The notes under the pieces: model-generated
Told to the model about the DNA's origin: nothing
Seen by the model: only the letters and a program-made list of their open reading frames with translations
Databases searched by the model: none
Part shown: piece after piece, positions 1 to 33,500 of the stretch
How the letters are laid out: the number at the start of each line of letters is the position of its first letter
Position numbering within the stretch: position 1 is the stretch's first letter
Source of the DNA: a virus
Length of the DNA: 60,097 bases
Virus record (IMG/VR): IMGVR_UViG_3300025821_000001
Strand: one strand, 5' to 3'
Made by a program: the position numbers and the translations under genes

Positions 1-127
1 CATATCGCTAGAGTAGTTATCGTGCTTTACAATAGCGTATTGAACTTGTGTTGGGTTTTCAATAATATCTGACCAGCGAGTAGTAGTGCCATGATAGTTT
101 TCTCCAACAGTAACCTCTTGGTTGTAA
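1..127. repeat. left copy of exact 127-bp terminal duplication (identical to 59971-60097)
   Basis: Direct comparison: catatcgctagagtagttatcgtgc...taacctcttggttgtaa is present at both ends with no mismatch. Confidence 0.97.
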
Positions 128-4068: not shown

Positions 4069-4521
4069 TTAATCCACTATATCGTAGTCAAAGTTTACAC
4101 CACTTCCTGCTGTTACAATAAAGGGTTGTACTAAGCCATTCTCTTTAGCTTGTGGGGTGAAGCTATTACCATCTCTAATTATAAGGGTATCATCGTTAGG
4201 AAAAGTGATTGTTACATCTCCTCCGTTAGCTACTCCTGAGATCTGCCTAGCTGCGTTCTTTAATAGTTTCATTGTAGACCCTGCTTGAGCGTCTGCAAAT
4301 CCATCCTTGAGCCAAAGAACTGTATCGCTGTCTATTCTCTCTACTTGTCTTATTGCTACGTTAACTGTATCAAATATCCAATCATTGATATTTAGTTCAG
4401 TTGTGAAGAGTGTAGATGTACCTACTAACTCTTTGCTTGCTGCTGCTGATACTATTGTTCCCGTAAGTGCTGCCGAGAGTGGGAGGGTATCTGTAGCGTT
4501 TGTAATATTCTGTGCTGCCAT
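4069..4521 (-). CDS. hypothetical virion-module protein (150 aa)
   Basis: ORF track; has its own TAACTTTG promoter box upstream; no motif recognised. Confidence 0.6.
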   Translation of the reverse strand: MAAQNITNATDTLPLSAALTGTIVSAAASKELVGTSTLFTTELNINDWIFDTVNVAIRQVERIDSDTVLWLKDGFADAQAGSTMKLLKNAARQISGVANGGDVTITFPNDDTLIIRDGNSFTPQAKENGLVQPFIVTAGSGVNFDYDIVD

Positions 4522-4548
4522 TGTTTGTGTGTTGTGTGAAACTTAGTG

Positions 4549-4556
4549 CAAAGTTA
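4549..4556 (-). promoter_or_regulatory. promoter -7 box TAACTTTG (Bacteroidota TAnnTTTG type)
   Basis: Minus-strand TAACTTTG about 27 nt upstream of ATG 4521, in the gap after the giant ORF. Confidence 0.45.
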
Positions 4557-4582
4557 CGAAATTATTATCTTTTGCAATTCCT

Positions 4583-7500
4583 TTAGTTGATGTTGTATTT
4601 TTTTGTAAGGGGTTTCTTTTTATTATTCTTTCTTTTACTCTTAGCTTTCTTTAGCATCTTATTTATTATGTTTGACATAGGTAACTGAGTACCTGCACCA
4701 ACAGCTAAAGAGAGGTTCATTATAGCGATAGATAAATCTGCCGCTACTACTGCGTCTATATCATCCTCCTTAACCATTTGCTCCCGCGACTTATTTACTG
4801 TTGCCCCTAGTGCTATTAGGTTATCAACTGCTGGTAGTAGCTCTTTACCTGTAAACACACTAACATCATATTTACTAGATAAATTTATCGGCTTATTCAC
4901 AAAAAAGTTATTCTTTAGTAAATCTGCCAATATTTTTTTATCTTCCTTATCTTCTGCCATATTGTACAGCGCACTTATAACTGCTATTGCTGCGCCCCTA
5001 GACACTTTTCCATACTTACTTACTGCTAGGAATGTCAGTTGGTTTGTTATTAAATCTCCTAAACCTTTAAGGGTAAACATCTCCTCCATTCTCTTTTCTG
5101 CCTCTTCTGCTTCGTCATCATCCCCAAACATTATCTGCGAGGCTAAATAATATACTCCCATCATGTATGAGTATGTAATAGCGTTCATTAAAACACCCCC
5201 TGCGTTAGCTAACTCTGCTGCGTTATTTCCTTTTTTATTTCTAAGGTCTCCTGCGATGAACTTTAAGGATTGGAAAAACTCACCTTGCTCCCTATATCCG
5301 AAATTACCAAAGAATGACACTAACCTACCTTGTGGGGAGTCAGCCTTAAATGTTATAGGTGTACCATCTTCTGACAGCCCTATACCTAAAAATTTAGACG
5401 GTGCTATCTCTACTGATCTCCTAGTCCCCCCTTTTGTCTTTGAGCCATAGATTCTTTCTACTAATTCTTGAGCCTTTGCTGTTGCATCTTTTATTGCTTG
5501 TAGGTTCTGTTCTTTATAAGCCTTATTATTTAAGAATTTTTTTCTGTCAAAAGATTCTCCTGTTATAGACTGAAACTCCCTTCTGAATACGGGCATAAAT
5601 CCTGTTATGGCTGTTAGGTATTCTGGAATAGACATTGTGTAACGTCCAACCTTTATAAAAATATTCTCTCTACCTACCGCTTCCTTTACGCCTCTTCTCT
5701 CTATATCACCTGATTTAAAGTCTGCTATATCTGCACCTGTTAAATCCTCTAATTCTCTTAGGGTGTCCCAAGATTCTTTATTGAAAGTGTCTGCTATACC
5801 TCTTGCACTTCTAACTTTGATTGGGATAGATGTAAATGCAGCTACTATCTCTATTGCTGACCTTATTGGGTCAAATAAGGACTTAGCGTATCTAGCACCT
5901 AACAGTTTAGTTAACATTCGTGGGGTGTTGCCTATTGACTTTTCATAGTCTAGTGATGCGTTGTAATCCCCCTTTATGGCGTTTGCAATAACTCCTGCCT
6001 TTGTTCTACTTATGGTTTTATTAAGTATAGCATTAGTTACGGGCTGTACCTCTGAGAATACATAATCTAATGAAGTGTCCTCAGCGTAGTTAATAACCAT
6101 CTCTGCAATATTAACAGGGTAAACTCCAAATGTAGGTCTCAGGGATTCTGTTACTTTTTCCTTTCCTTGTTTTGCTTGTGGGCTAAACTTATCAAACTTC
6201 TTAGTTGTTGCGTCAACATCTCCTATTCTACCTTTTCTTTGTGTTGGTACATAATACACTTGAGGGTTAAACTCTATGCCCCTTCTTAAGTTAGCTGCTT
6301 CTTGTCTGTCCCTACCCTTTTCAAATACCTCTTCTGCTGTTTTTAGCATCTTTCGTTCGCGGGGGTTGAGTAAACTTTCATAGTTTTCTGATAGTACTTG
6401 TACATCTACATACCCCTCTTCTGTTTTTGGTAGGCTCTCGTAGAACTCCTCTATATTCTTTCGTTCTCGGTTGTCCCACATTGACTTAGCTTGTCCCTTC
6501 TTATGGTACTCCTTTTCGCTTTCTGATAATCCTGCCGCATCCATAGCTGCTTCATTACCTAACCAGATGCCAAATATATCTCTGTTCCCTACCTCAACTC
6601 CATCTGCTTTTGTACCACTACCAAGTAGTGATGCTTCTCTTAGATACTGCGCAATTATACCCACCCTATTAAAGCCTCGCTCATCTCTCCTAAAAATACT
6701 AGGGGACGATGCTTTTAAAAAGTCTTTAAGCATTGTGTCAGACATCTTCTTAGCCCTTGTAAAAGCATTACTCATAGGTTGATACACCATCTTGTATATC
6801 TCATCCCTCTGTGAGTTGAGTATATTTCTTACTCTTTGTGCCGCCTCTTTTGTACCTAATCTATCAATCCACGCTTTAACGCTTAACCCCTTGGGGTCAA
6901 TTTCTTCAATAGCGTCAACAAGTTTATCTACCCTCTTTGATTTACTTGCAGCAAATTCTCTAAGGTCTGATATTTCTTTAAATGGGATATTCCCCGCTAT
7001 AATAGCCTCAGCCGCATCGTTAAACCTGCTTAACCAAGCAGCGTCATCAACCTTCTCAGCCTCTAACAGTAGTCTAACCTCGTCTGCCTCTACGCCATCA
7101 AGAGTTAACCCCTTTAGTTTTAAAACACTCTTTTTGTATTTTTTACTCTCTTGTACTGTGAATTTGTCTAGCTCTTTTTTAAATATATCTACTTGCTCCT
7201 TTAACTTAGAGTTTAACTCCTCAGCTTTTTCCTCTGTTATAACCCCATCCTTAACTGCCTTGTCTATTGCGTTCTTAGCCCTTGTTAAGTTACCTCTTGA
7301 TTGTGATGCTAATTGAGCCGTAGTTATTTTATTAGACTCTATATCTATCTCTATTTCTTCTTCTAATTCTCTTACTAACTCTGGGTCTATGTCTTGTTCT
7401 GAATCTAAATACTCTCCAATTATTTGTTGTCTTTCTACTTCAAGATTTATGAACTGAGAGAAGGTTTCTGCTTTTGCTCTCTTTTTCTTATAATCCTTTA

Positions 7501-10500
7501 TCTTTTCGGTAATGCTTTTTTGTGGGGTGTTCTTTTGCTGCTCTGCTACCTCTTTATTATACTTAGATAATAACTCATTAATATCTGCAACAGTTGTTGT
7601 TGGGGATTTAGTTAATAAGTCATCCGCAATTTTTTCTATTTCGTCTAATAGGTTTTCATCTTCAATCTTCTTAGCGTTAATCTTAGAGAGTGCTTTTGCT
7701 GCTTGCCCTACCTTGGACTTTCCTCTAGCCATCTTTCCAGCCCTCTTTACTTTAGAGTTTACATTAGACTGCTTCTGTTTTGTGGCTGCATCTTTGAATC
7801 CCTTTTCAATATCAGTTAAAAACTCATCTACAGCCTTCTTGGAAGCTAGGTCTGTATTGTTTAATTTCTTTAGCCAATTAGCAGATTGATTAACTGTTAT
7901 ACGTCCACTCTTTTCTAAGTCGTTAATGTAATCAGATATACCCTTTCTTACAGCCTTTTCATCCCCTACGCTGGCAAGAATAGATAGCTTTACTTTCCCA
8001 ATTTTTTGTTTACTCCCTTTCTCTAATACACTATTCCTATACTCTATAGCCTTATCATAATCATCAAAAGATTTCTCTTCTATATCTAATTCATTATTAG
8101 GGTCATATACCATTGCAACAACATCTGGCTTTCCATGCTCTGCTTCGTTCCATCCTTCAGGAGCGAACTCTTCATTAAATGGAGTTCTAGAAACAATTCT
8201 AAATCCATTTCTTTGATAAACCTTTGTTAAGTAGTTATCAAAGTTATCTAGCATTTTACCGCCTTGCTTTACAGCCTGTTTTAATATATTGTCTGCTACG
8301 CCTTTCTTTTTACTATCAGGGTCTTTAAATACCCCTGTAATATCTCCATCAGGTTTAACAAAAGCTGCACCACCATCAACACGAACAACAGTACCATCAG
8401 TTCCTTCTGGAACTTCTGATACAGACCAATATTGCTTTGTGTCTGAATCTTTAACTTCTTTTAGCTCTTGAAAGTAGGAATCATTTTCTTTCTTACCTTC
8501 TTTGGCATCTTGTTCTTGTATTTTGTACTTATTATTTTTAAAGTCGTAAGATATATCTATATTATCTACTTCGCGTATGTTATTTCCGTCAAAGTAGAAT
8601 AGTTTATCTGCCCCATTTTCATGAAAGCCTTTTTCTATATCTCCTGACCTAACTGCATCTTTTAAATCTTCGGGGGATGACCAATCTGTTATATTTTCAT
8701 TAGTAACTTCTCCTGATTTTGCAGAATATGATTTAGCTTTGTACTTATTAACGTCCTCAGATTTTGAAGGTCTGTAACCATAAGATGAATCACCCTCAAA
8801 TATAAAGCCTCTTTTTTTATACCAATCTTTTAACTGCTTATCTGTAAGTCCTAGTTCTCCCTTTTTTAATCCCTGCTTAGTTTCTGTTGCTCCTTTTGAG
8901 TCTACTATTAATGATACAGACATATCACTCTCGTCTGCCGCATCTAGTATATTTTTTAACTCTTTTGATGCCAACCCTTCTCCACGATTTTTGTCTACCC
9001 CTATAAAATCTATTTGAATATCTCCTTGAACCTCTTGACCATTTATGTCAACAACATCATTATCCTCTCTCAATGTAACTTCTACTCCATCAGGTGTTGT
9101 ATAGTTATAGCCTTTTTCTCCAAATCCTGCGTCTACCTCATTAAATTCCCCTCCACTGAGTCTATCCGTTAGTCGGCTGACATCCTTGTTTGGTACACCC
9201 TCTGCTTCTTTTGTAGTCTCTTCTGTAGTTTTTTGCATTTCTACAGGCTTAACTAATACAGGAAGGTCTATAGATATTTTATAGGTAAGTCCTTTTTTTG
9301 TTATAGTTGCGTTTATTCCTGGATATGCTTTTTTTACCTCAGCTAATTCTGTTTCTGCTTCTGATTTTACTGGTGTTGAAAATTCATTAAATGCACTCTC
9401 TCCTTTCTCTTCTAAAGACTCTTTTGTTGCGGCACTATATTTTGTAGGTCTTGTTACTACATTCCCATCTTCATCTACTTTTTCTACAAGTCTTGACTTA
9501 TTATAAGTTCGTAAACCGCCTTTAGATATTGTTGTAGTTTCAACAACCTCTACATTATTAGGTAATGCATTTTCTGCGGATGTAATTATATTCTTAAACA
9601 CACCGCTTTCAGAAGTTTGCATTTTAGCAGAGAACATATTTGTTGGTTTACCATTTTCGTAAACCCTTACATAACCTACAAAATTACCTTCATTTGTAGC
9701 GGTAATTATAGCATCCACGCTCTTCGTTTCAGGATTTACATACGTTGCTGTTGTGACCCCATTCTTGTCAGTAGTTGTAATGTCTGAAATTTCAGCCGCT
9801 CCGTAAGGTAGTCTCTTGTCTTTGTGTTGGTCTCCAAATAAATTCTCCTGTTCTTTAGTTCTATTTTCTAATCTTTGTTCTGCGGTAGTTTCTTCTGTTG
9901 TAGTTTCTTTAGTAGCAATACCCTCTGTTGCTAGTTCTGTTAATTTTTTATCTATTACGGCTATCTTAGCTTGCTCTCCTCCTCGTTGTGTTGGGTGGAG
10001 TGATCCCATCTCAGCTTCTAGTTTTTCTCTTTCAGCTAGGAGTCTTATACTTTCCTCTCTGTTATTGTTTGTTGGAGATAATTCAGAGTCATACTTTAAT
10101 ACTCGATTTATTTTATCTTGTGATATGTTGTACCCCTCTTCGGTTAATGCACCTGATTGATACATCCCCTTAATTTTCTCAGTTAATTGTTCTAGGTCGC
10201 CTTTACTGTTGAGTACTTCTTTTATCTCTTCGTCTGTTAATTCTTGTGTGGGTTTGTCAATAACAGCTTTAGTTTTCCTTAAAGAAGCCGCCCCCTTACC
10301 CATACCAAAAAGTAGCATACTTCCTGCAAATGTAGATGCACCTGTTTCTGCTGCATCTTTTGTAAAGGTTGCGTTAAAACTTTCTTTTAAGAAAGCCTTT
10401 CTACCCTCATCCGTTTTTATGCCTCCGTTTTCTAGTGCTGCTTTGTTTGCTTTTTCTACTGACTGTTGAAAAATCTCTGTCCCTGATTCTTTTAGAGATG

Positions 10501-11827
10501 CAACAGATATGTCTTTACCTAATGAGACTAGTTTAGGTATATTTTTTTTGACTTGATCTTTAACCCCAGCCTTAAATATTGAGTTTCTCATAAGGTTGGC
10601 AGCCGTACCCAATCCGTAAAATTCTGATGCTGTTGCTAATCCTGCTGAAAGAAGTGCTGTGGTTTCGTCTTCTAGGTCTTCCGCAATAATATCTTCCTCT
10701 TTTTTACCTGTCTCTTTTGCCTTAGCTCTTACGGCTTCCATGTACATAGGTGCGCCTATTTCCCCAAACGTACCCATACCCATAGTAGCTGTGCTTGTGA
10801 CCATAGACCTTAAAAAGTCTACTGCCGTACCTACAGCCGCAGCCGAAGCCTTGTCAATCTCTCCTTTTTCTAGGCTTTCTAAAAACGGTAGTGTAGGTTT
10901 TAATTTTTCCTCTGTATCTTGTATTTCTTTATATGCCGCCTGTTGTTGTGTTACACTTTGACTTGCTCCTCTAACTAATTGTTTAGTTTTATCTGATATA
11001 TCTTGACCACTTAATATTCCATATAAAGCAATAGGTAAACTGACAGTAAAATCTTCTGATAACTGCTCCCCTAATAATATGGTCTTAGCGGGTATTAAGC
11101 TAGTCATAAGCGCAGAATTATACAACGCATTACCTATACTCTCTAATGGTGAAAGTTGGTCTATCTGTTCTTGATAAGCTAGGTCTATAGCTGCTTGCTT
11201 ATCCTTAACTACAATATTAAGTTCTTTAAACGCTTTATCGTTTACATTCTCATTTACTTTTTTTAACTCTTCGTTAAGTTTAAAGTTTGTTTGGAGTTTT
11301 TGGTTTACTTGTGTATTAACTTTTTCATAGTAACTATTCAGTCCCTCGTTAGCTTTATTAGCATCAATCTCTCCTCTATCTAAACTGTCTTGAAGTTCTT
11401 GCCTTTTTTGCTGTAGGAGTGGCTCGTAAGAGTCCATCATCTTTTGCCTTACATCTTGTATAGGTAATTCGTCAACAAGTTTCTTTCTCTCTATACTTGC
11501 GTCAAGAAGTATTTGCTCTTGACGCTTAATGTATGGGTCTTTTATATTAGATATAAGTTCTTCCCTAGAAGCTACCCCTACAGGTAACTCTTGCTCTACA
11601 AGTGGACTAGGAGTTCCACTCTCCTCTGAAGGCTGTGGTCGTTGTATACCTAATAAATTAGAATATGCTTCTTCATCACCGTCAAAATCTTTCTCTTTAA
11701 ATGTGTTAAAGGATAAATTAAAAAAATCATTATTGGATTGTAATAACTTAGTAAAATCTTCTTTACTACCCTTAAATCCTTTAGCAAGAGATAAGTTCCA
11801 TGCGTCTTGTAATGCGTCTTCTTCCAT
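4583..11827 (-). CDS. giant multidomain virion-associated protein (2414 aa), candidate internal/ejected polyvalent protein with two GNAT-like signatures
   Basis: Uninterrupted 7.2-kb ORF in the structural arm, so the CDS itself is near certain. It has coiled-coil-like N-terminal third, GNAT motif-A-like RGEGLA and KKKGVA segments each followed by a ...Y..(R)GF segment, and hydrophobic segments plus a Lys-rich tail at the C-terminus. Function is inferred. Confidence 0.55.
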   Translation of the reverse strand: MEEDALQDAWNLSLAKGFKGSKEDFTKLLQSNNDFFNLSFNTFKEKDFDGDEEAYSNLLGIQRPQPSEESGTPSPLVEQELPVGVASREELISNIKDPYIKRQEQILLDASIERKKLVDELPIQDVRQKMMDSYEPLLQQKRQELQDSLDRGEIDANKANEGLNSYYEKVNTQVNQKLQTNFKLNEELKKVNENVNDKAFKELNIVVKDKQAAIDLAYQEQIDQLSPLESIGNALYNSALMTSLIPAKTILLGEQLSEDFTVSLPIALYGILSGQDISDKTKQLVRGASQSVTQQQAAYKEIQDTEEKLKPTLPFLESLEKGEIDKASAAAVGTAVDFLRSMVTSTATMGMGTFGEIGAPMYMEAVRAKAKETGKKEEDIIAEDLEDETTALLSAGLATASEFYGLGTAANLMRNSIFKAGVKDQVKKNIPKLVSLGKDISVASLKESGTEIFQQSVEKANKAALENGGIKTDEGRKAFLKESFNATFTKDAAETGASTFAGSMLLFGMGKGAASLRKTKAVIDKPTQELTDEEIKEVLNSKGDLEQLTEKIKGMYQSGALTEEGYNISQDKINRVLKYDSELSPTNNNREESIRLLAEREKLEAEMGSLHPTQRGGEQAKIAVIDKKLTELATEGIATKETTTEETTAEQRLENRTKEQENLFGDQHKDKRLPYGAAEISDITTTDKNGVTTATYVNPETKSVDAIITATNEGNFVGYVRVYENGKPTNMFSAKMQTSESGVFKNIITSAENALPNNVEVVETTTISKGGLRTYNKSRLVEKVDEDGNVVTRPTKYSAATKESLEEKGESAFNEFSTPVKSEAETELAEVKKAYPGINATITKKGLTYKISIDLPVLVKPVEMQKTTEETTKEAEGVPNKDVSRLTDRLSGGEFNEVDAGFGEKGYNYTTPDGVEVTLREDNDVVDINGQEVQGDIQIDFIGVDKNRGEGLASKELKNILDAADESDMSVSLIVDSKGATETKQGLKKGELGLTDKQLKDWYKKRGFIFEGDSSYGYRPSKSEDVNKYKAKSYSAKSGEVTNENITDWSSPEDLKDAVRSGDIEKGFHENGADKLFYFDGNNIREVDNIDISYDFKNNKYKIQEQDAKEGKKENDSYFQELKEVKDSDTKQYWSVSEVPEGTDGTVVRVDGGAAFVKPDGDITGVFKDPDSKKKGVADNILKQAVKQGGKMLDNFDNYLTKVYQRNGFRIVSRTPFNEEFAPEGWNEAEHGKPDVVAMVYDPNNELDIEEKSFDDYDKAIEYRNSVLEKGSKQKIGKVKLSILASVGDEKAVRKGISDYINDLEKSGRITVNQSANWLKKLNNTDLASKKAVDEFLTDIEKGFKDAATKQKQSNVNSKVKRAGKMARGKSKVGQAAKALSKINAKKIEDENLLDEIEKIADDLLTKSPTTTVADINELLSKYNKEVAEQQKNTPQKSITEKIKDYKKKRAKAETFSQFINLEVERQQIIGEYLDSEQDIDPELVRELEEEIEIDIESNKITTAQLASQSRGNLTRAKNAIDKAVKDGVITEEKAEELNSKLKEQVDIFKKELDKFTVQESKKYKKSVLKLKGLTLDGVEADEVRLLLEAEKVDDAAWLSRFNDAAEAIIAGNIPFKEISDLREFAASKSKRVDKLVDAIEEIDPKGLSVKAWIDRLGTKEAAQRVRNILNSQRDEIYKMVYQPMSNAFTRAKKMSDTMLKDFLKASSPSIFRRDERGFNRVGIIAQYLREASLLGSGTKADGVEVGNRDIFGIWLGNEAAMDAAGLSESEKEYHKKGQAKSMWDNRERKNIEEFYESLPKTEEGYVDVQVLSENYESLLNPRERKMLKTAEEVFEKGRDRQEAANLRRGIEFNPQVYYVPTQRKGRIGDVDATTKKFDKFSPQAKQGKEKVTESLRPTFGVYPVNIAEMVINYAEDTSLDYVFSEVQPVTNAILNKTISRTKAGVIANAIKGDYNASLDYEKSIGNTPRMLTKLLGARYAKSLFDPIRSAIEIVAAFTSIPIKVRSARGIADTFNKESWDTLRELEDLTGADIADFKSGDIERRGVKEAVGRENIFIKVGRYTMSIPEYLTAITGFMPVFRREFQSITGESFDRKKFLNNKAYKEQNLQAIKDATAKAQELVERIYGSKTKGGTRRSVEIAPSKFLGIGLSEDGTPITFKADSPQGRLVSFFGNFGYREQGEFFQSLKFIAGDLRNKKGNNAAELANAGGVLMNAITYSYMMGVYYLASQIMFGDDDEAEEAEKRMEEMFTLKGLGDLITNQLTFLAVSKYGKVSRGAAIAVISALYNMAEDKEDKKILADLLKNNFFVNKPINLSSKYDVSVFTGKELLPAVDNLIALGATVNKSREQMVKEDDIDAVVAADLSIAIMNLSLAVGAGTQLPMSNIINKMLKKAKSKRKNNKKKPLTKKYNIN
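11580..11636. repeat. segment of the giant gene made of two blocks identical to the 817-aa gene
   Basis: 11580-11601 equals 13789-13810 (22 nt) and 11603-11636 equals 14034-14067 (34 nt). Encodes PSEESGTPSP..VEQELPVG. Confidence 0.85.
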
Positions 11828-11834
11828 CTTTTAT

Positions 11835-14288
11835 TTATTTTTTAAACCCAATACCACTACCTGACTCTAATTTAACATTATAATCAACCCACTGCCTTCT
11901 ATCTAACACACCATTTGAGTTTTCAGCAGGTTTAGCAGAGTAACTCCCAGCGTCATAGAATGCTAATGTAATATCCTTCAAAGGTACATCATAGTCTTTT
12001 GATAGTCTCTCTGCTTCCGCTTTTATATTATTCGCAGAGCCACTGAAATCATCTGCAATTAATTTGCCGTCTTTCTCAAATAAAAAAACTGTTGCTGAAC
12101 CTGAGAATCTACTATATAATTCCTGCCCCTTTACGAATTTACCATCTGCTGTTTCTCCATCAAGTACAGGTAGATTTGGTATGGGCTTTCCCTCTTTAGT
12201 AGACAGTACCTGTATATCTTTGCCATATTGTTTGTCTGTTGTTCTTTTTACCCAATCTATCTCTCCATATTTATACTGGTCTAAGTTTTGAGTTACATAG
12301 TCGTTCTCGGTAACATCTCCTTTCTTTTTGTAAGAGATTCTCAAATCCCCACTCTCAGTCTTATTGAAGACGGGTACATATTGGTCATTTTTCAGTTTCT
12401 TGAAATTTGATGTGTTATAGCCTAACTCTGTTGAGTAGCCTCCTTTTTTAAACCACTCAGATTCTTTTTTTAAGTCCTCATTTGTTGCATCATAAACATC
12501 CTTAAATTCCTTAGGTCTGCCATCCCGTATAAAGAAATGGGCTACCCCCGATACCCCTTCTAACTTCTCAGGTGCTTCTGTATTACCATTGGAGGGAATT
12601 GGTGCGTAAGTAAATCCATTCGCTGCATCAAACACATTTCTAAATACATTTAGGTTATACTCTATGTCTGAGTCCTTCTTATTACCCTTCAAATCTACAT
12701 TCAGCACACTCCTCCAAAAATTATCTGGTACTGGAGCATATATTTGAGTATATGTGGGTATAGTGTCTTGTACAGTTTCGTTATTAGTTTGTGAAATATC
12801 TACGGGTTGTGTTGATATTTCTACATCGTTAAATTCTGTTATACTGCTTTCGGCTACTACTTGATCTTTAAAACCATACTGTATTAGAACCCTGTTAACG
12901 TATGACGGAATATTACTAATAAAATTACCATAATATTTTTTCTCTTGTTTTGCTTTTGCCTTTAGCTGTTCTCCTTCATCTAAGATCATGTCTCCTATTT
13001 CCTCAAATGCGGCACTTCCCCTTAATCTAAATTTATCGCTCTCAGCAATAGTGCTGTTTAATAAACCATCAATATAAGATAGCGATTCAGTAAACATAGA
13101 GTAATCCTCTTCATTATCAATATTCTTTGCTACTTCCGATATTTTTTTAATCTTTTCTTCTTTGATAATCGGTTTAGTAGTAGTGGTATTAGCGGGAGTG
13201 AATACGTCTCTCACGTTTTGGGTTATTCCATCCTTCATTGAAGGTATCTCTTCCATCTTAGGGAAGTTTATCTCAGATGTCCTAGGTTTATATTCCTTGT
13301 TCGAAGGTATCTCTTCCATCTTAGAAAAGTTTGTCTTAGATGTCCTAGGTTTATATTCCTTCTTCCAACTTCCCCTAGCAAACTTATCTGCCTCTTCTTG
13401 ACTATCAAACTCCCAAACTTCTTTTCTCTTCTTAGCTTCATCAAAAGCCTCTCCACCTTCTAATCTAATCCAATCTTTAGGGTCGCTTGTTTGTTTGTTT
13501 GGGTCTTTAGGAAACAGTGTGGGATAGGCATACTCTTTCCCATCGTACCCACCACTCTCCATTAAAACAGTAGATGGACTCTCTTGCCCCTCTAGTTTAA
13601 CAGAGTTTTTTCTTATATCATAGGGACTAGGAGTTCCCACCGTAGTTTTATTACCCTCAACTATTCCTGCCTTAGAGCCTATAGCCGCCCCCCTAACAGA
13701 ACCGAGAAGTGATGGGTTAGGAGTTCCAACCTTAGTTTTATCTACTTTATTTTTATATGGAAGAACCTTATTTTTATTAATAATACCGACAGGTAACTCT
13801 TGCTCTACAATTGGACTAAGGGTTGTATTACCGTCAACTATTCCTGCATTATAGCCTATAGTTGCACCCTTAATACCACCGATGGGGGTACTGGGCTTAT
13901 ATTGTTTATTATACTTACTAATATCAATAGTACTTACATCTATCGTTGTGTCAATTGGATTTTCAACTTCAAAATCTGCGAAACTAATAGTCTTAGGTGC
14001 AGCTATGCCAAAAGGTATCTCTTTCTTTACAAATGGACTAGGAGTTCCACTCTCCTCTGAAGGCTGTAATGGTTGTGATGGACTAGGAGTTCCAACCTTT
14101 GACTGCTCCCTTGTAGCCCCCTCTGATTGCTCTGAGGAGGCGTTTGAAAAACCCATAGAAGCCCCTCCCGTGCTTGGTGGTGGGGGAGGTGGTGGTGGAA
14201 TACTCCCGTTAAACTTAGTTGTAGTACTTGGTGGGGGAGGTGGTGGAGGTGGTATACTCCCTTGAACTTTATCTTTTTCTCCTACCAT
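11835..14288 (-). CDS. repeat-rich virion protein with twin polyproline tracts (817 aa)
   Basis: N-terminus is GSIPPPPPPPPST repeated twice. It also has GTPSP modules, a 21-aa tandem repeat and a globular C-terminal half. Start overlaps the stop of the upstream gene at 14288. Confidence 0.6.
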   Translation of the reverse strand: MVGEKDKVQGSIPPPPPPPPSTTTKFNGSIPPPPPPPPSTGGASMGFSNASSEQSEGATREQSKVGTPSPSQPLQPSEESGTPSPFVKKEIPFGIAAPKTISFADFEVENPIDTTIDVSTIDISKYNKQYKPSTPIGGIKGATIGYNAGIVDGNTTLSPIVEQELPVGIINKNKVLPYKNKVDKTKVGTPNPSLLGSVRGAAIGSKAGIVEGNKTTVGTPSPYDIRKNSVKLEGQESPSTVLMESGGYDGKEYAYPTLFPKDPNKQTSDPKDWIRLEGGEAFDEAKKRKEVWEFDSQEEADKFARGSWKKEYKPRTSKTNFSKMEEIPSNKEYKPRTSEINFPKMEEIPSMKDGITQNVRDVFTPANTTTTKPIIKEEKIKKISEVAKNIDNEEDYSMFTESLSYIDGLLNSTIAESDKFRLRGSAAFEEIGDMILDEGEQLKAKAKQEKKYYGNFISNIPSYVNRVLIQYGFKDQVVAESSITEFNDVEISTQPVDISQTNNETVQDTIPTYTQIYAPVPDNFWRSVLNVDLKGNKKDSDIEYNLNVFRNVFDAANGFTYAPIPSNGNTEAPEKLEGVSGVAHFFIRDGRPKEFKDVYDATNEDLKKESEWFKKGGYSTELGYNTSNFKKLKNDQYVPVFNKTESGDLRISYKKKGDVTENDYVTQNLDQYKYGEIDWVKRTTDKQYGKDIQVLSTKEGKPIPNLPVLDGETADGKFVKGQELYSRFSGSATVFLFEKDGKLIADDFSGSANNIKAEAERLSKDYDVPLKDITLAFYDAGSYSAKPAENSNGVLDRRQWVDYNVKLESGSGIGFKK
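13240..13365. repeat. 2 x 63-bp in-frame tandem repeat inside the 817-aa gene
   Basis: Copies 13240-13302 and 13303-13365 differ at 5 positions and encode EYKPRTS(K/E)(T/I)NF(S/P)KMEEIPS(N/M)K twice. Confidence 0.9.
14169..14258. repeat. duplicated segment encoding GSIPPPPPPPPST twice
   Basis: Plus strand ggtgggggaggtggtgg(t/a)gg(a/t)atactccc occurs twice; residues 11-40 of the 817-aa protein. Confidence 0.9.
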
Positions 14289-15835
14289 TATTGTGTCTTT
14301 AAAGATTTAATATACTCCTCAGTATAGTTAGCATCTATAAGCTGTTGTTTTGTATATGCATACCCATTACTTGCAATATACTTTTTTTCTGGTAATAAGT
14401 CTACACCGTACATAGCTTCTATCTTACCAATTAACCTATCATTAAGCTCTATGACTTTAGGCCCTATTACCTTCTCGGAAATTGTTTCCCCATCTGTGCC
14501 GTCCTTAGTCCTTGATGATACTGTCTTCTCTTCGTTGATTATTAAGAATCCTTTTCCTTCGGGGTTAATATACACCTCTTGTAGAGTTCCTTTTGAACTT
14601 CCTATTGTTATAGGCTTTAACTCTTCACCTTTCTTAGTAATTTGTATAGATGTCAAGTTGGCGTCTTTTTCTATCGCGGCTTGTAAACCAACCACAAACC
14701 TATCTTTAAGTCTTGCTGTTTCGGCTTTTTGGTCTTCATCCGAATCCAAATTACTACCTAAGTCACTAAACATTTGGTCATACTCATCAGCTTTCAGTGC
14801 AGCTAATCTCTCAGCATCTCCTTTACCTAATACTGTTTTAGTTACGTTAAACTCTTTATCTTTACCGTCACCATCTGTCGGGGCTTTAAATGTTTTAGTT
14901 TCTAACTTACTTGGGCGGTATCTCTCTCCTGTTTGTTTTACAAAAGCATTATAGTCGTTTCTATAAATATCTTTAGCATTATCATCACTTAACATTGAGG
15001 GTGCATTACCTTCTTCTATTGCTCTAGTAGTCATGTACGATGCAAGAAAGTCAGGTCTGTTTTGTACAGCCTCTAGTGCGCTGTTGTAATCATCCTCTGT
15101 AATACCTGTTAAGGTCTCTTGTACTATTAGTTCTCCTGTCCTATCGTTGTAAACACGGTTTAGTTTTTCCTTGCCTTGTAGTCTTAATGAAGCGTCTATC
15201 TCATCTAATAGTGCTTTGTTCATATCCCCCTCAGTAAACTTTGGGTTATACATAATGTTTTCATTTACTTTAGGTGACATCTTTTGCATTGTGTCTGCTG
15301 CCCAAAGTTGAATATCCTCTACATCATCTGTTGATGAATCCCCTAAAAACTCGTATTGGTATGTGGGGTTTTCATACTTCATATTTTCTTCATCCCAATA
15401 TAAAGCATCTTTATATTCCCCCGATTGGGACTGTGCGTTCTTAAAACCCTCTTTACCTTGTTTATTTATAACGTCAATGTACCCAAGACTCTTCATTAAC
15501 TCTTTCTCTGACTGAGCTAAGTCTATTCCGTTTACAGAGTCTTCCATAAACTTATCAATAGCTTGTTGCTTTAATGCCTCTGTCTTTGGGAAGTCTGTGT
15601 CTTGCTCATACGCAGCTTTAGCGATGTCCATCATCTGCTTCTTCCTAGCTGCTGCTGCTGCATCCTTCTTAGCATTACCATCAGCAATCCCCTGCCCTAT
15701 AGCTTGTGCGCCTCTTTGAATTGCAGTAGTGTCTAATCTTCCCGCTTGAGGTGTGAAAACTTGTGCGCTGCCTTGTCCCATACCTGTTGTGGTAGGTACG
15801 CTTGAGTATGCTCCGAAACTGCCTTGCTTTGCCAT
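14288..15835 (-). CDS. hypothetical virion-module protein (515 aa)
   Basis: ORF track; tightly packed in the structural operon; no motif recognised. Confidence 0.65.
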   Translation of the reverse strand: MAKQGSFGAYSSVPTTTGMGQGSAQVFTPQAGRLDTTAIQRGAQAIGQGIADGNAKKDAAAAARKKQMMDIAKAAYEQDTDFPKTEALKQQAIDKFMEDSVNGIDLAQSEKELMKSLGYIDVINKQGKEGFKNAQSQSGEYKDALYWDEENMKYENPTYQYEFLGDSSTDDVEDIQLWAADTMQKMSPKVNENIMYNPKFTEGDMNKALLDEIDASLRLQGKEKLNRVYNDRTGELIVQETLTGITEDDYNSALEAVQNRPDFLASYMTTRAIEEGNAPSMLSDDNAKDIYRNDYNAFVKQTGERYRPSKLETKTFKAPTDGDGKDKEFNVTKTVLGKGDAERLAALKADEYDQMFSDLGSNLDSDEDQKAETARLKDRFVVGLQAAIEKDANLTSIQITKKGEELKPITIGSSKGTLQEVYINPEGKGFLIINEEKTVSSRTKDGTDGETISEKVIGPKVIELNDRLIGKIEAMYGVDLLPEKKYIASNGYAYTKQQLIDANYTEEYIKSLKTQ

Positions 15836-15845
15836 GTATTTTATT

Positions 15846-16637
15846 TTATGCTATACCCCCTGATGCTACTGTTCCACTCATCTGTAAAAGTGAACCTGTC
15901 ATATCCATCATCATTTGCTGTTGGGCTAGTTGCTGTTGGTAGTCAAAGTTAAGTGCGTTATATTGGTTCTGTTGTGATGACCCCATTAATGCTTGCATCT
16001 CTGCTGTCTTCTCTGCGTATGGTTGAAGGACGTTATAACCCTCTGCTTGACCCTCTAATGCCCCTAAATTACCTAGCTGTGCCATATACTGCTGTTGGTT
16101 AGCTTGTGCAGCCATAGCGTCTTGTGCGTTTAGTTGTCTGTATGATTGTGCGGTGGAGGTTTGTGTTTGTCCTAAGTTTCTTAGCCCTGCTCCTAGACTA
16201 CTTGCTGCGGATAGCTGTGCTGCTTGATTACCTGCAATATTATCCGCAGCCATTTGTCTTTGAGCTTCGGGCATACCCTCTCTAGCATATCCCTCTGCCA
16301 TTTGAGTAATCTGTCTTTGGCGGTTGACCGCTGCTTGCATATCAGGGCGACCTTGAGCCTCTAATTCAGCCTTTAGTTTTTGGGCTTGTATATCTTGTTG
16401 TGACGCTGTTAGGCTTTGGTTGTTTAATAATGCATCTGCCGAATCTCCTGTCTTCCCTCCCCCAAATACTTTATCTTGTACGTCTGTTGAAACACTCTCG
16501 CCTGTTATATTCTCCCCTAGTGACTTTCCCGTAGTACCGTATGAAATAGCCTGTAAAGGTACACCCACTGGTGACATGACGTAACTTGCGGCATCTACTG
16601 TTGTTCCTAATATCTTATTCCAATTCCAATTCTTCAT
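15846..16637 (-). CDS. Gln/Ala-rich low-complexity virion-module protein (263 aa)
   Basis: ORF track; Q/A-rich (QQQLAQQQMMMDM); TAAATTTG box 10 nt upstream. Confidence 0.6.
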   Translation of the reverse strand: MKNWNWNKILGTTVDAASYVMSPVGVPLQAISYGTTGKSLGENITGESVSTDVQDKVFGGGKTGDSADALLNNQSLTASQQDIQAQKLKAELEAQGRPDMQAAVNRQRQITQMAEGYAREGMPEAQRQMAADNIAGNQAAQLSAASSLGAGLRNLGQTQTSTAQSYRQLNAQDAMAAQANQQQYMAQLGNLGALEGQAEGYNVLQPYAEKTAEMQALMGSSQQNQYNALNFDYQQQLAQQQMMMDMTGSLLQMSGTVASGGIA

Positions 16638-16672: not shown

Positions 16673-19600
16673 TTATAATGAACTCTCAGATATGAAGAAC
16701 TGAACTCCCATACTAGCTAACTTAGCTTGTGTGGTTGCGTCACTCAATAGTCTTATTGTTCCGTACTTACCTCTTAGGTCATAGCCCTCTAAAAGAGCGT
16801 TTGTCCTATTTGGTGTTAAAGTGTCTTGTCTAAATCCTGCTGCCCACTCATTAGGTTGGTACTCGCTGTAGTAGTTCTCAAATAGTTGACTTGTCTGATT
16901 ACCATCTTCTATGTTTATGTCTCCATCTGTTTCTGATGTCCATACACTGTTAGCTTCTAGCTCTATGGTTTGTAATCTTTTTTGTTTATCGGGGGCGGTG
17001 TTAAAAGGCATGGTAATCTCTGCGTTTTTAGCCACTCCATAAAGACTTCCATAAGCATTGTTAGTATTATGCACCCACAACCCGCCATCTTTAAAAGAGG
17101 AAAAGTCTACTCCCGTTGTAACCATATAGTCAGGGGTAATATCTGAAAATGATACCCAAGAGTTAGACGGCTCATTGAACATTGGAGTGTCTATTCTATA
17201 TCTTAACCAAGCTGCTGTTATTGTATTAGCACCTACTTCTAATACAATAGTAGCGTTATCATCACTGTTTACAGTAATACTTAACCCCGTTTGGTAATAA
17301 TAGTCTGTGCCATCAAAAAGAACTATGCCCTCTACAAGATCAGCTAAGTTACCACTAAATGCGTTCTTTAAAGTAAATGATAGATTTGAACTAGCTCCAC
17401 CCAAGCCTGTTGCTTGTGCGTAACCCATAATACTTACAGTATAGTTCTGTAACCTTTCATCATAAACTCCTAATATCTTTCTATCTGCTGCGTAAACATC
17501 CTTAACGTCAAGGTTCTCATTGAACCACGTTGTCATTCCGTAGTCACTTATCTCTTGTATTCCGTTAGAGCTAAGTCTGCATATTGCATTATTCCTACTA
17601 CTTGGGAAATAGTGTGTTTCGTTATACTTATCAAACCCTTCTGGATTAGTCCCTATACCCCCATCATACTCATAGTAGTTAATACCGTTTAACAGTGCTG
17701 TTGTTTGGTAAGTAATCTCTGATGAATCTTGTTTTGCAAGTTCTTCAAGAATACCTATCTGCCCTACCTTATCTTCAAAATAGACTATGAGCTGTTTGTT
17801 TTGTCTGAGTGATGCTTTCTGTATCGACCCAAAAGAGTCGTCATAAGTTTTAATAGAACTGCCAAGAACAATACTAAGTCCATTTGTCGTGCTTTGTGGT
17901 ATTATAGGCTGTGTAAATGCTATAGCTGCTCCCCTTTGAATTTGGTCTAATCCTGACTCTGTTACTACGTTAGGTCTTCCTATGGCTGTAACTGCTGAGT
18001 CGTAGTATGGAGAGAAGTCATTAGCTTCTGTTATCATGTGTTCTGTGTCATCAACAATTGACCCTCCAGTATATGTTACTATACCTAATGCGGGGGTTAG
18101 TCTACTCCAAGTGTCTCCTGCGTCTGTTATGTCTATAATAGCCCCTCTAACTGCGTTTTGTGTCTGCGTGTTCCCCGTATGGTATCCCCCTGTAATATTA
18201 TAGTGATGCCCTATCTCACTATATACAACAGGCTTGGTATTTGATGTAGGTCTAACTACTTCTGCTAAAATTATCCCTGCCTCATCCTTAGCAATACTAG
18301 GTGTAAGTGTAGACAGGTCAAAGTTAAACAATACGAAGTTGGTGTTTACTTCGTTTATCTTTATTAAGGGGGCTGAGTTAAAATATGTAAATACACCTGC
18401 TGTTGGGGACGCAGGAGGAGGGTCAGTTGTTGCATCCGTTTGGACATATTTTGCAATAGGTCTTATTAAATCTCCGTCAACATAGTTATACTGCTGTGCT
18501 TTTGAGCCAAATTCTTTTATATTAAAATCATTTACTGAAAAAATGCTAACTGCATATAGGTCGTTATTAAGAAAAGAAGGGGATATTGTTATAGCACCTG
18601 TCCAAGAAGATGTATTATGTGAAATAGTCTCGTCTGTGAATGTGCCACTAGCTACCCCTATCAATAAACTTCCTGCTGTTGAATTGGATACATCTCCGTA
18701 TCCTACAATAAGCCCAACAGCAGATGCGCCATCAACTTGTTGTCCAATTAGGGGTAATGTACCTGTTCCTGCCGTGTATGAAACATTTATAACATAGTAT
18801 GCGCCACAAAATATTTGTAGTAACTCAGGTGCATTTTTAGCATATAATATATCGTAGCTGTCTGCGTCTGTTGGGGGGGTGTTTTCTATTATTACTCTAG
18901 CTGAAACTGAGCCGTCATTAGTAGTTGAATCAAATCCCTCAGAATAAAAACTATCTAACGGTATGGCAGAGCTTCTACGTCCATTCTTGTTGTATTGAAG
19001 TGCGAAGAAGTGTTCTCTGTATCTCTTAAAGTTGGGTTCTGATACTGTTGTATTATCTATGCCTATGAGACCTATTCCTACTGATGTTATTCCTGTTGTT
19101 GGTGTGTATGGGGATACTTGCTGGTTTACCCCATATATAAGCCTTACGACACTCCCTACAGCGTAGGCTACTATTCCTCCAAACCCTAAATATCTTGTAT
19201 CAACGCTATTTATTTGGTCTGCTATAAACTGAGCAAAGCTAGATTGTGTTTCCCCCTTTCTTGCTCTTGCTGTTATACTTACTACTTGCGATGCTGGTGT
19301 TACGGGAATACTCCCCGTAACAAGTAGGTTTAAATTTATGCCGAACGTATACCCATACTGTAACCCGCTATTAACGGTCAGTGTTTTAAAATGAGGTGAT
19401 GTATTAATTAAAATATCAAAATTAGGGTTGTAGTATGACCCCGCAGTTAATATAGATGTACCATTAAAAGTAATTGTAGATGATGAACCTGATGATCTTG
19501 TATTATAAATAGGTAGTGTTTGTCCTGCTACTTCTACATCTGCATCAAATCCCTCAGTGATGTTTAAAAAAGCTAGTACGTTACTTGGGAGAAATACTAC

Positions 19601-20575
19601 TTCTTTTGCTCTTGGGGGGATAAAAGAAAAAGGCATAGCCATCTCTGTCTGGTCTACCGCTTCTAGTGGTTCATCCCCTGTATAAACAATAGCTACCCTG
19701 TCGGTCTGATTTAGGTCTATCTCATCATAGGTAAGCTCTCTGAACTTATACCATATACCCATTGTATTATCGTCTGCCCCTGACTGAACAAGCAGTTCTA
19801 CCTTTTCTACTTGGTCACTGTCAGGTAACTCAACAGGTATTGTAATTGCGTTATCATAGTAAAATGAATCCGAAAAAGTTTGTGCCTCTTGTTTTAATTC
19901 CTCGTACTGAGGGTGTGTTAGTTTTGATATTCTTGATGGGTGTGTTCTAAACCCTCCCTTATACACATATCTTGTTCTAAACTTGTATAGCTTACCTACT
20001 AAGTTATTCTTTTTTATAGATGATGAACTAAAGAAATTTGGCTCTAATGGTGTGGGGTTTGGTATCTTGTAAAGCTCTACTAATGCTCTGTTAGCTGTTG
20101 TGATTGTTGTTGCGGGTAGGTTCTCTAAATCAATACAGCCTATCTCTTGGTCTTCCTGAGTCCAAACTAAATATCTGTCAAGTACAAGAACAATACCTGT
20201 GATAAGTTCGTTGAACATGAAACCTAGTCCTACTCCCTCTGCCAACTGAGTAAATGCTCCGTCTGATAAATTATACCCGTAGCTTACTACTTCATGGTCT
20301 CCATTACCATTCCAAATAAAGTAATATACTGTCTCTAGTCCCTTATCATCATACGCTCCTATGCAGATGTTATCTCCTGCATTTAGTGTGTAAGATTTAG
20401 AGGTGTTTCCCTTTAGGTTTGTGACTACAAAGTTATTGCCATTAACCATATAAGATACGTTCCTAGCGTTTGTATAGAAACCATTTTGGACATAGCGGGG
20501 GTCTGTGTCTTTATCCATTCCACCTTTTCTAGCTCCACCACCGCTATTTACAAATATTCTTTTATCTACAGGCAT
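16673..20575 (-). CDS. large tail/nozzle-type structural protein (1300 aa)
   Basis: 3.9-kb ORF in the structural arm, beta-rich composition. Assignment is by size and position only. Confidence 0.45.
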   Translation of the reverse strand: MPVDKRIFVNSGGGARKGGMDKDTDPRYVQNGFYTNARNVSYMVNGNNFVVTNLKGNTSKSYTLNAGDNICIGAYDDKGLETVYYFIWNGNGDHEVVSYGYNLSDGAFTQLAEGVGLGFMFNELITGIVLVLDRYLVWTQEDQEIGCIDLENLPATTITTANRALVELYKIPNPTPLEPNFFSSSSIKKNNLVGKLYKFRTRYVYKGGFRTHPSRISKLTHPQYEELKQEAQTFSDSFYYDNAITIPVELPDSDQVEKVELLVQSGADDNTMGIWYKFRELTYDEIDLNQTDRVAIVYTGDEPLEAVDQTEMAMPFSFIPPRAKEVVFLPSNVLAFLNITEGFDADVEVAGQTLPIYNTRSSGSSSTITFNGTSILTAGSYYNPNFDILINTSPHFKTLTVNSGLQYGYTFGINLNLLVTGSIPVTPASQVVSITARARKGETQSSFAQFIADQINSVDTRYLGFGGIVAYAVGSVVRLIYGVNQQVSPYTPTTGITSVGIGLIGIDNTTVSEPNFKRYREHFFALQYNKNGRRSSAIPLDSFYSEGFDSTTNDGSVSARVIIENTPPTDADSYDILYAKNAPELLQIFCGAYYVINVSYTAGTGTLPLIGQQVDGASAVGLIVGYGDVSNSTAGSLLIGVASGTFTDETISHNTSSWTGAITISPSFLNNDLYAVSIFSVNDFNIKEFGSKAQQYNYVDGDLIRPIAKYVQTDATTDPPPASPTAGVFTYFNSAPLIKINEVNTNFVLFNFDLSTLTPSIAKDEAGIILAEVVRPTSNTKPVVYSEIGHHYNITGGYHTGNTQTQNAVRGAIIDITDAGDTWSRLTPALGIVTYTGGSIVDDTEHMITEANDFSPYYDSAVTAIGRPNVVTESGLDQIQRGAAIAFTQPIIPQSTTNGLSIVLGSSIKTYDDSFGSIQKASLRQNKQLIVYFEDKVGQIGILEELAKQDSSEITYQTTALLNGINYYEYDGGIGTNPEGFDKYNETHYFPSSRNNAICRLSSNGIQEISDYGMTTWFNENLDVKDVYAADRKILGVYDERLQNYTVSIMGYAQATGLGGASSNLSFTLKNAFSGNLADLVEGIVLFDGTDYYYQTGLSITVNSDDNATIVLEVGANTITAAWLRYRIDTPMFNEPSNSWVSFSDITPDYMVTTGVDFSSFKDGGLWVHNTNNAYGSLYGVAKNAEITMPFNTAPDKQKRLQTIELEANSVWTSETDGDINIEDGNQTSQLFENYYSEYQPNEWAAGFRQDTLTPNRTNALLEGYDLRGKYGTIRLLSDATTQAKLASMGVQFFISESSL

Positions 20576-33172: not shown

Positions 33173-33500
33173 GATGTATAAAGTTCATAATACTGCCAAC
33201 AGCAGCTTTCTCCTTTAGTGATGTTTTATCATCTAGGTTAAGTCCGTTAGTCTTTAAGTCTTGTATTCTCTTTACAATTTCGGGGAGGTCTTTTAAAAAC
33301 ATCTTACCCCTATCAAAAGTCTTGTCTTTAGCGTCCTCTAAGTTCTCAACTAAGTTATTACCCTCTAAATAGGTTATAATATCCTCAGCTTGCTTCTCAA
33401 GTGCTTTGATAGCTCTGTTTGATATATTGTCTGCTAACAGATACTCTATAATATCTATGTAGTCCTTCTCCTTTTTTCCTTTTAGCTTTTCTCGTAACAT
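33162..33500 (-). CDS. hypothetical protein, possible terminase small subunit (position only)
   Basis: 112 aa, helical and charged; overlaps the terL start by 11 nt. Confidence 0.3.
   Translation of the reverse strand: MLREKLKGKKEKDYIDIIEYLLADNISNRAIKALEKQAEDIITYLEGNNLVENLEDAKDKTFDRGKMFLKDLPEIVKRIQDLKTNGLNLDDKTSLKEKAAVGSIMNFIHRED

Follow-up and report, generated by a model that had tools for sequence, protein, structure and literature searches.

What is the function of a gene that takes up almost an eighth of a viral genome? The question is raised by a 60,097-nt stretch of viral DNA (IMG/VR record IMGVR_UViG_3300025821_000001; hereafter "the window," meaning this whole stretch), in which one open reading frame (ORF) encodes a protein of 2414 amino acids (aa), here called the giant. 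The original prediction, made from the sequence alone, had described it as a single ORF covering about 12% of the genome and as a candidate ejected polyvalent protein. The first 127 nt of the window (1-127) are identical to the last 127 nt (59971-60097), so that the window corresponds to a closed genome of ~59,970 bp (assembly overlap; circular or circularly permuted). The ORF runs uninterrupted from ATG to stop and its share of this genome is 12.1%, as had been stated. We consider it probable that the giant is the largest internal cargo or ejection protein of a podovirus with a crAss-type tail, organized on the polyvalent-protein plan. We favor this reading of a virion-internal, ejected protein of the polyvalent type because gene order, the domains of the relatives, the fold and the composition agree; from these four lines of evidence, which support the earlier proposal, we infer presence in the virion and ejection. 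The best explanation of the giant would then be that of a functional counterpart of T7 gp16, N4 gp50 and crAss001 gp47/gp49.

The giant ORF is a real gene, since metagenomes hold an identical protein, orthologues with 74-99% identity and 91 more distant clusters. The source virus is a marine Flavobacteriia-type podovirus with a 60-kb genome. Three groups of Flavobacteriia podoviruses, namely Maribacter phage Panino, Cellulophaga phage phi38:1 (Pervagoviridae) and the Flavobacterium elemo phages, have portals with 23-26% identity to that of the source virus. From 36 kb down to 0.3 kb, every gene lies on the minus strand. Several small structural genes are found in this virion arm between a 460-aa protein and the tail genes, and the arm ends with a tail-tubular-like gene, a muzzle homologue and the genes for proteins of 263, 515, 817 and 2414 aa. 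The gene of the giant is the last large one, placed 7 nt after the 817-aa gene and in the same orientation. The other arm encodes an SNF2-type helicase, a primase-like protein, a family-A DNA polymerase and a PD-(D/E)XK nuclease.

This gene block parallels crAss001 gp43/gp44/gp45/gp46/gp47 (236, 1371, 842, 534 and 2341 aa, respectively) and phi14:2 g072-g065. The products encoded downstream of the muzzle in these phages (crAss001 gp45-gp47, phi14:2 g070-g065) have been detected in virions by mass spectrometry (MS) and are considered to be cargo that is ejected via the tail. The likeness to the crAss-like cargo (crAss001 gp45-gp50; phi14:2 g065-g068) consists in the layout after a homologous muzzle, the size series and the low number of cysteines (Cys), whereas the sequences show no similarity to the giant. 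The genome also differs from those of crAss-like phages in its length (60 kb, not ~100 kb), in having no giant RNA polymerase (RNAP) and in its portal and large terminase (TerL), whose relatives are found in Pervagoviridae, Elemovirus and Panino and not in Crassvirales. The muzzle assignment comes from a 1300-aa protein. It shares 27% identity (E = 2e-34) with a protein of 1453 aa that is encoded on the related contig L005 and bears a PF25731 crAss_MUZ match; it also matches phi38:1 gp97 (E = 1e-10), and its direct matches to the C-terminus of crAss001 gp44 (E = 0.009) and to Pfam crAss_MUZ_C (0.083) are weak.

A second parallel is given by the podovirus ejection block of three proteins, of which the largest and last carries an enzyme (T7 gp14/15/16, N4 gp51/52/50). 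Like T7 gp16 and N4 gp50, the giant is the product of the last and largest gene of such a block and would carry an enzyme payload along with extensive helical regions. It differs from both in the absence of sequence or profile homology, is nearly twice the size of gp16, and its structural similarity reaches TM scores of 0.2-0.3 only. Furthermore, comparison with Pfam and NCBIfam gave no SLT or lysozyme match (thus, unlike gp16, no lytic transglycosylase) and no RNAP.

The same gene order bears on two other explanations. The giant could be a multi-enzyme or structural protein made late, such as an assembly factor or a component of a replication compartment, and never be packaged; its place in the virion is indeed deduced and most of its length has no assigned function. 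We regard this as quite unlikely, given that the gene is contiguous and co-oriented with virion genes, that the positional analogues in phi14:2 and crAss001 were MS-detected in virions, and that the elemo homologue (see below) is annotated as a structural protein. The great length and the helical, charged stretches would also suit a tape-measure-like length determinant, and a check for homology to such proteins returned one insignificant TMP_2 match (E = 0.24). In agreement with what had been noted from the sequence, no sheath, tube or tape-measure gene was found among the ORFs scanned, and neither was a chaperone gene. The portal and muzzle are of the podovirus type, the relatives are podoviruses, and the giant carries enzyme cassettes and a non-repetitive C-terminal module. 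The tape-measure reading was rejected on genome context and its probability is negligible.

The composition of the giant is unusual. It contains no Cys in 2414 residues (P ~ 1e-8, given 0.75% Cys in the other ORFs of the genome), and five consecutive products (263, 515, 817, 2414 and 150 aa; 4069-16637, minus strand; 4159 aa in total) are all Cys-free. Taking the ejected or cargo status of the T7, crAss001 and phi14:2 proteins from published work, we found no Cys in T7 gp15 (0/747 residues) and gp16 (0/1318), 0-3 per protein in crAss001 gp45-gp50 and 0-2 in phi14:2 g065-g068. The positional analogues phi38:1 gp99-101 and Panino CDS69/71 and the corresponding block of L005 also have none, and 35 of the 41 giants of the C-module family are Cys-free. 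The Cys content of muzzle, portal and terminase proteins is 0.1-1.7%. Although indirect, the absence of Cys is an independent hallmark of proteins that have to traverse a narrow channel in unfolded form and then an oxidizing periplasm. Panino CDS0069 (L001 35432-40921, 1829 aa, 0 Cys), a positional analogue of the giant, is annotated as "tRNA methyltransferase"; this annotation looks unsupported, as Pfam gave no family at E ≤ 0.001.

Relatives of the giant were also found through its C-terminal part (C module). An exhaustive HMMER search with aa 1250-2414 against 1.84 billion representatives gave 91 clusters, 44 of them below 1e-30, and the C module invariably forms the C-terminus of proteins that are 1000-3600 aa long. 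Among 17 C-module giants, individual members carry RadC, ddrB-ParB, ART-PolyVal, LPD23 or ParB_N, which are domains from which polyvalent proteins were defined (Iyer, Burroughs, Anand, de Souza and Aravind 2017, PMC5512222); LPD38 also occurs among the relatives sharing the N or C scaffold. The giant resembles the phage-type polyvalent proteins of that study, for which GNATs are a described payload class, in being a giant multidomain protein encoded among virion genes, in a scaffold that is joined to different effector domains in different phages, and in its relatives, which carry ART-PolyVal, ddrB-ParB, RadC, LPD23, LPD38 and a zincin-like peptidase. Hence, the size, the context and the shuffled architecture of polyvalent proteins are seen in the giant, and their signature domains only through its relatives.

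A comparison with the giants of Flavobacteriia phages, which the original prediction had recommended, provided a homologue from a cultured phage. The terminal "structural protein" of Elemovirus (vB_FspP_elemo) occupies the same genomic position, has 0 Cys in at least 3637 aa, and matches the C-module profile with E = 1.4e-17 (elemoA_5-9B) and the C-module model in Foldseek with 4e-11 (elemoC_14-1A). It is a distant relative, differing from the giant in the absence of BLASTP-level identity, in its DUF3293 payload and in its much greater length. The terminal gene of elemoA_5-9B spans the ends of its record (L099 1-10916 + L011 34229-34397) and takes up about 18% of that cultured 60-kb genome; DUF3293 is the only Pfam match of its product.

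The fold of the C module points in the same direction. AlphaFold2 (AF2) modeling with a 25-row alignment produced an all-alpha structure with pLDDT 78.5 and pTM 0.79. When this model was compared with BFVD using Foldseek, 33 matches below 1e-3 were obtained, all to predicted viral structures. They include C-terminal pieces of giants named LPD-, ART-PolyVal-, MuF-, N-acetyltransferase-, nuclease- or methylase-containing, as well as a crAss-like virus protein. Another neighbor (7e-5) is the phi14:2 protein S0A048, which we take as g065 because both have 1421 aa; g065 has been found in virions by MS and reportedly contains a zincin-like protease. The ~1300-aa T7-like internal virion proteins of JG068 (6.5e-4) and RSB3 (1.5e-3) were also returned, with TM scores of 0.2-0.3; together with that of PSTCR2, the matches to these internal proteins span E values of 6.5e-4 to 1.5e-2 and TM scores of 0.2-0.4. 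The earlier statement that the giant by eye matches none of the known giant internal proteins is thus corrected at the level of the C-module structure model, which does bear a weak resemblance to such proteins.

These data also bear on the possibility that the giant is an external or distal tail component (a fiber, tail needle or baseplate-like adhesin) or a scaffold inside the capsid that is retained by the particle. The tail genes do adjoin the giant, the downstream 150-aa protein has a weak tail-fiber N-terminal match (phrog_1980, E = 3e-4), and receptor-binding proteins, too, typically exchange modules fast. Yet long charged helices and an all-alpha fold characterize the conserved part, which has no beta-rich binding domains, and its fold neighbors are internal virion proteins. 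Moreover, family members bear enzymes that act in the cytoplasm (ART, ParB nuclease-like, RadC), and the giant is Cys-free like ejected proteins and unlike muzzle, portal or fiber proteins. We therefore hold a tail or scaffold role to be unlikely and retain that of an ejected internal protein.

We have drawn the module borders of the giant from BLASTP and DNA comparison with relatives (proteins numbered P00xx and contigs L00x). The protein is a mosaic with breakpoints at aa ~83, ~616 and ~1286, and the flanks are 75-96% identical in DNA. At least five modules are separable, and modules are common to otherwise different giants at 64-97% identity. The modules and the genes of the virion arm are listed in the table.

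Table. Modules of the giant and virion-arm genes of the window
Feature	Coordinates	Strand	Residues of the giant	Remarks
Giant ORF	4583..11827	minus	1-2414	ATG-to-stop, uninterrupted; 2414 aa, 0 Cys, 5 His
Leader	11648..11827	minus	1-60	two tandem ~21-aa helix-loop units (GFKGSKEDFTKLL / DFDGDEEAYSNLL)
Linker motif	11570..11645	minus	~61-86	QPSEESGTPSPLVEQELPVGVA; 76-nt DNA repeat
N scaffold	9980..11578	minus	84-616	helical
Variable central cassette	7970..9979	minus	~617-1286	
Cassette domain 2	8723..9190	minus	880-1035	GNAT-like motif by eye
Cassette domain 3	8003..8425	minus	1135-1275	probable GNAT-like
Charged helical linker	7331..7969	minus	~1287-1499	36-39% charged; conserved with P0002-P0004
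C-terminal module	4586..7330	minus	1500-2414 (~1500-2410)	all-alpha; conserved in P0002-P0004
Hydrophobic helix	4679..4762	minus	2356-2383	transmembrane-grade; Kyte-Doolittle (KD) 1.84
C-terminal tail	4586..4651	minus	2393-2414	basic; KKAKSKRKNNKKKPLTKKYNIN (starting KKAKSKRKNNKKK)
817-aa protein	11835..14288	minus		0 Cys; poly-Pro repeats and repeated VGTPSP/VEQELPVG motifs
515-aa protein	14288..15835	minus		0 Cys
263-aa protein	15846..16637	minus		0 Cys
1300-aa protein	16673..20575	minus		crAss-type tail muzzle homologue
245-aa protein		minus		related to phi38:1 gp96; ahead of the 1300-aa gene
460-aa "virion structural protein"		minus		probably capsid protein
Portal	28511-30940	minus		phrog_6547, E = 5e-65
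Large terminase	31049-33172	minus		phrog_6681, E = 6e-82

The leader, which gave no Pfam match, is 87-100% identical in P0005-P0009, whose bodies are unrelated, and near-invariant also in P0014 and P0015. It is followed by a ~25-aa motif (QPSEESGTPSP.V..E.P.G) that is common to the giant and the 817-aa protein. At the DNA level, the motif corresponds to a 76-nt repeat (11570-11645 versus 14001-14076 in the 817-aa gene, 86% identity), with a 39-nt copy at 13786-13824. The N-terminal module that the original prediction had seen in both proteins thus shrinks to this motif and its DNA repeat. The DNA identity to L005 (92.5%) and L006 (95.9%) extends from the 817-aa gene through the linker motif and ends abruptly at aa ~83. 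Leader and linker motif persist while the bodies are exchanged and may therefore act as a signal for packaging or docking. P0002 and P0004 have a poly-Pro N-terminus, typical of the 817-aa protein, in place of the leader, and the 76-nt repeat offers a recombination substrate that would yield the leader-swapped fusions of these two giants. In another contig (L098 4856-12757), a 2633-aa giant directly follows a ~490-aa gene, with no separate ~800-aa gene. This, together with the giants of P0002 and P0004 that start as the 817-aa protein does, points to cases in which two neighboring cargo genes have fused naturally, and fusion of cargo genes into polyproteins has been reported for crAss phages.

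The leader also raises the question of a virion-packaged RNAP, like crAss gp66/gp50 or N4 gp50, that would supply the enzyme missing from the genome. As had been noticed before, no phage RNAP gene was found in the replication arm or elsewhere among the ORFs scanned, the position of the giant is that of the crAss RNAP-associated giants, and aa 47-51 read exactly DFDGD, the universal metal-binding motif of RNAPs (chance expectation, 0.002 per protein). The motif lies, however, in the leader, whose 60 aa form two short helix-loop repeats and cannot accommodate a double-psi beta-barrel; the motif reads GFEGD in the 74%-identical orthologue P0003, and P0002 and P0004 lack the leader but have both scaffolds. 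No other D.D.D motif is present in the giant, no RNAP family matched in Pfam, PHROGs or NCBIfam, and the all-alpha C module has no PDB neighbor even though that library holds solved two-barrel RNAPs. Many podoviruses, besides, rely on the host RNAP only. The RNAP reading is largely refuted and very improbable, with a small residual doubt that stems from the poor model of aa 84-1283; we keep that of an ejected cargo protein. The DFDGD motif (window about 11687-11701, minus strand) is judged non-catalytic.

The N scaffold contains a helical region predicted by AF2 (aa 87-213, pLDDT 73-87) and five moderately hydrophobic segments rich in Gly, Ala and Ser (aa 234-516). It is common to P0002, P0003, P0004 and P0013 (73-91% identity) and to P0005 (37%), which bears LPD23 and DUF6782 (a putative metallopeptidase) beyond it. 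The "long charged helical region" announced by the original prediction is therefore present, both in these helices and in residues ~1287-1600, where the charge and helical character of the linker listed in the table continue. Toward the C-terminus, hydrophobic stretches do occur as described (aa 1983-2388), with the qualification that only one of them is transmembrane-like, and the cluster of aa 234-516 had gone unreported. The C-terminal tail noted there is basic. Few proteins were returned by word-indexed searches for homologues, whether the query was the N region or the C-module alignment. A pattern scan for the C module gave two loci only in IMG/VR and no relative in GTDB genomes, the latter being pattern-limited and thus weak evidence against prophage copies.

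The central cassette is the variable part of the giant. The orthologues P0002-P0004 lack it and hold other sequence there, and the DNA homology to contig L003 ends at 9980 and restarts at 7969. No assignment could be made for aa 665-860. Domain 2 shows by eye an R-x-x-G-x-A motif (NRGEGLA) followed by WYKKRGF (aa ~945-1010) and is 47% identical to a segment of P0006; it has no hidden Markov model (HMM) support, and the IMG/VR search gave no relatives. In domain 3, the motif K-K-K-G-V-A, followed by ...Y.RNGF, can be compared with the acyl-CoA pyrophosphate-binding Q/R-x-x-G-x-G/A. Aligning both domains with hhalign paired only a 15-column "Y.k.GF" motif. The sole family signal of the whole protein in Pfam, NCBIfam and PHROGs lies in domain 3 (aa 1153-1255), with the matches from all three libraries spanning the same acyl-CoA-binding core (KKKGVA...KMLDNFDNYLTKVYQRNGF). 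This domain is probably GNAT-like and may have acetyltransferase activity. The "enzyme-like" center of the original prediction is thereby reduced to one weak match below cutoff and to a second motif recognized by eye.

Relatives of domain 3 were found at 370 loci in IMG/VR. Among the 80 best loci, they were almost always located within ORFs of more than 1000 aa, often more than 2000 aa, and in cultured Microbacterium, Nostoc and archaeal viruses the domain is found under the name "minor capsid protein." These settings give domain 3 the distribution of a virion-delivered effector domain. The "minor capsid protein" setting also recalls the MuF/SPP1-gp7-fused head proteins, another head-packaged delivery vehicle, which differ from the giant in their carrier scaffold; the giant has no MuF domain.

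Several results weigh against an ejected polyvalent protein. In Pfam, the giant itself has no polyvalent-protein signature domain (no LPD, MPTase, ART or MuF), and its GNAT-like domain is below threshold: Acetyltransf_10 matched aa 1153-1214 with E = 0.0046 and 17.4 bits (cutoff, 23.6), and the NCBIfam GNAT model PRK09831 with E = 0.026 and 14.6 bits, also below its curated cutoff. A profile built from 31 homologues of domain 3 reached only one GNAT in the PDB (2qec, E = 1.1), with spurious top matches to an S-layer protein and a peroxiredoxin. Since it gave no convincing GNAT structure, we grade this domain as probable and not as proven. BLASTP and HMM comparison of the giant with phi38:1 gp101, Panino CDS0069 and crAss001 gp45-50 gave nothing significant. 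The AF2 model of aa 84-1283 (10-row alignment, pLDDT 41) was unusable and was kept out of the fold search, which leaves half of the protein unassigned. The structural search that had been advised therefore succeeded for the C module in BFVD alone; in the PDB, its model had no neighbor (best E = 0.2, TM < 0.15). The fold similarity to gp16-like proteins is weak and concerns predicted structures only, and hhalign comparison of the C-module profile with phi14:2 gp65, T7 gp16 (0.9%) and a six-member gp16 alignment (0.4%) gave probabilities below 1%. Because these profile comparisons were not significant, kinship with gp16 rests on the weak fold similarity only. Additionally, phmmer with the whole giant against PDB sequences found no match at E ≤ 1, and one Panino match (E = 4e-5, 13.7 bits) obtained in a 50-sequence set was not trusted.

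The neighboring genes complete the picture of the virion arm. The 817-aa and 515-aa proteins are candidate ejection proteins in the size classes of crAss gp45 and gp46, respectively. The 817-aa protein begins with two GSIPPPPPPPPST repeats and contains several copies of VGTPSP and SP.VEQELPVG; its gene has a 63-nt tandem duplication (13231-13356), and the protein is 72-89% identical among phages with completely different giant genes. Just downstream of the giant, the 150-aa protein with the phrog_1980 match (4069-4521, minus strand) is conserved at the same position in L005 (42% identity). Upstream of the terminase, a 245-aa product (33482-34219, minus strand) has a weak match to the PF01068 ATP-dependent DNA ligase adenylation domain (E = 8e-4, below cutoff). 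Panino CDS0075 and phi38:1 gp97 are homologues of the 1300-aa muzzle-type protein. The muzzle-plus-cargo tail design seems to extend beyond Crassvirales, because the muzzle homologue sits in a 60-kb phage with portal relatives in Pervagoviridae, Elemovirus and Panino.

What the data establish directly is the ORF, its gene order, the mosaic breakpoints, the distribution of the family, the all-alpha fold of the C module and the lack of Cys. If the giant is an ejected cargo protein, the infection could proceed as follows. The giant would be expressed late, at the same time as the virion genes, and be packed into the capsid. At infection, it would be extruded, at least partly unfolded, through portal, tail and muzzle, leaving after or together with the 263-, 515- and 817-aa proteins, which would open a conduit across the envelope. 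Packaging, translocation and contact with membrane or DNA may be the task of the Gly/Ala-rich N scaffold and of the C module, which bears the hydrophobic helix and the basic tail. The central cassette, with its GNAT-like acyltransferase domain or domains and its unassigned domains, would be the payload, acting on host targets in the first minutes in counter-defense or takeover. Both the cassette and even whole bodies would be swapped between close phages by recombination at the conserved flanks.

The strategy itself, a head-packed protein that is ejected, is already known, and the giant is a new version of it. New are the two large conserved scaffold modules, N and C (about 1450 aa), for which Pfam, PHROGs and NCBIfam have no model, and the occurrence of the C module together with a crAss-type muzzle in flavophages of 60 kb that lie outside Crassvirales. 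The clean exchange of cassettes between phages with 85-96% identity in the flanks and the Cys-free signature as a practical marker are also new.

A broader reading, which we consider doubtful, is that the ~900-aa C module represents an ancient, unnamed "ejectosome carrier" chassis common to gp16-like proteins, crAss gp49/phi14:2 gp65 and a large class of podoviral polyvalent proteins. If so, podoviruses from Autographiviridae to Crassvirales and the marine flavophages would share one homologous inner-membrane or translocation chassis, onto which interchangeable effectors (lysozyme, peptidase, ART, nuclease, GNAT) would be bolted. The 60-aa leader and the SGTPSP-VEQELPVG motif would then act in packaging or docking, as a signal that allows the loading of any body.

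The first minutes of infection are decided by proteins that enter the host with the phage DNA, yet few phage genes are as poorly annotated as those that encode them. The giant is a case in point, as it matches nothing above threshold in Pfam, PHROGs and NCBIfam, its phrog_2563 match (E = 1e-9) being to a family of unknown function. The C module with its 91 clusters, the absence of Cys and the position after a crAss-type muzzle gene provide a handle for recognizing such proteins in uncultured marine Bacteroidota phages, and a Cys-free run could work as a simple marker for ejection proteins. The near-identical phages that keep the flanks and exchange the payload constitute a natural cassette system. 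Finally, the giant offers a possible link between the crAss "RNAP-associated" proteins, the T7-type core proteins and the polyvalent proteins.

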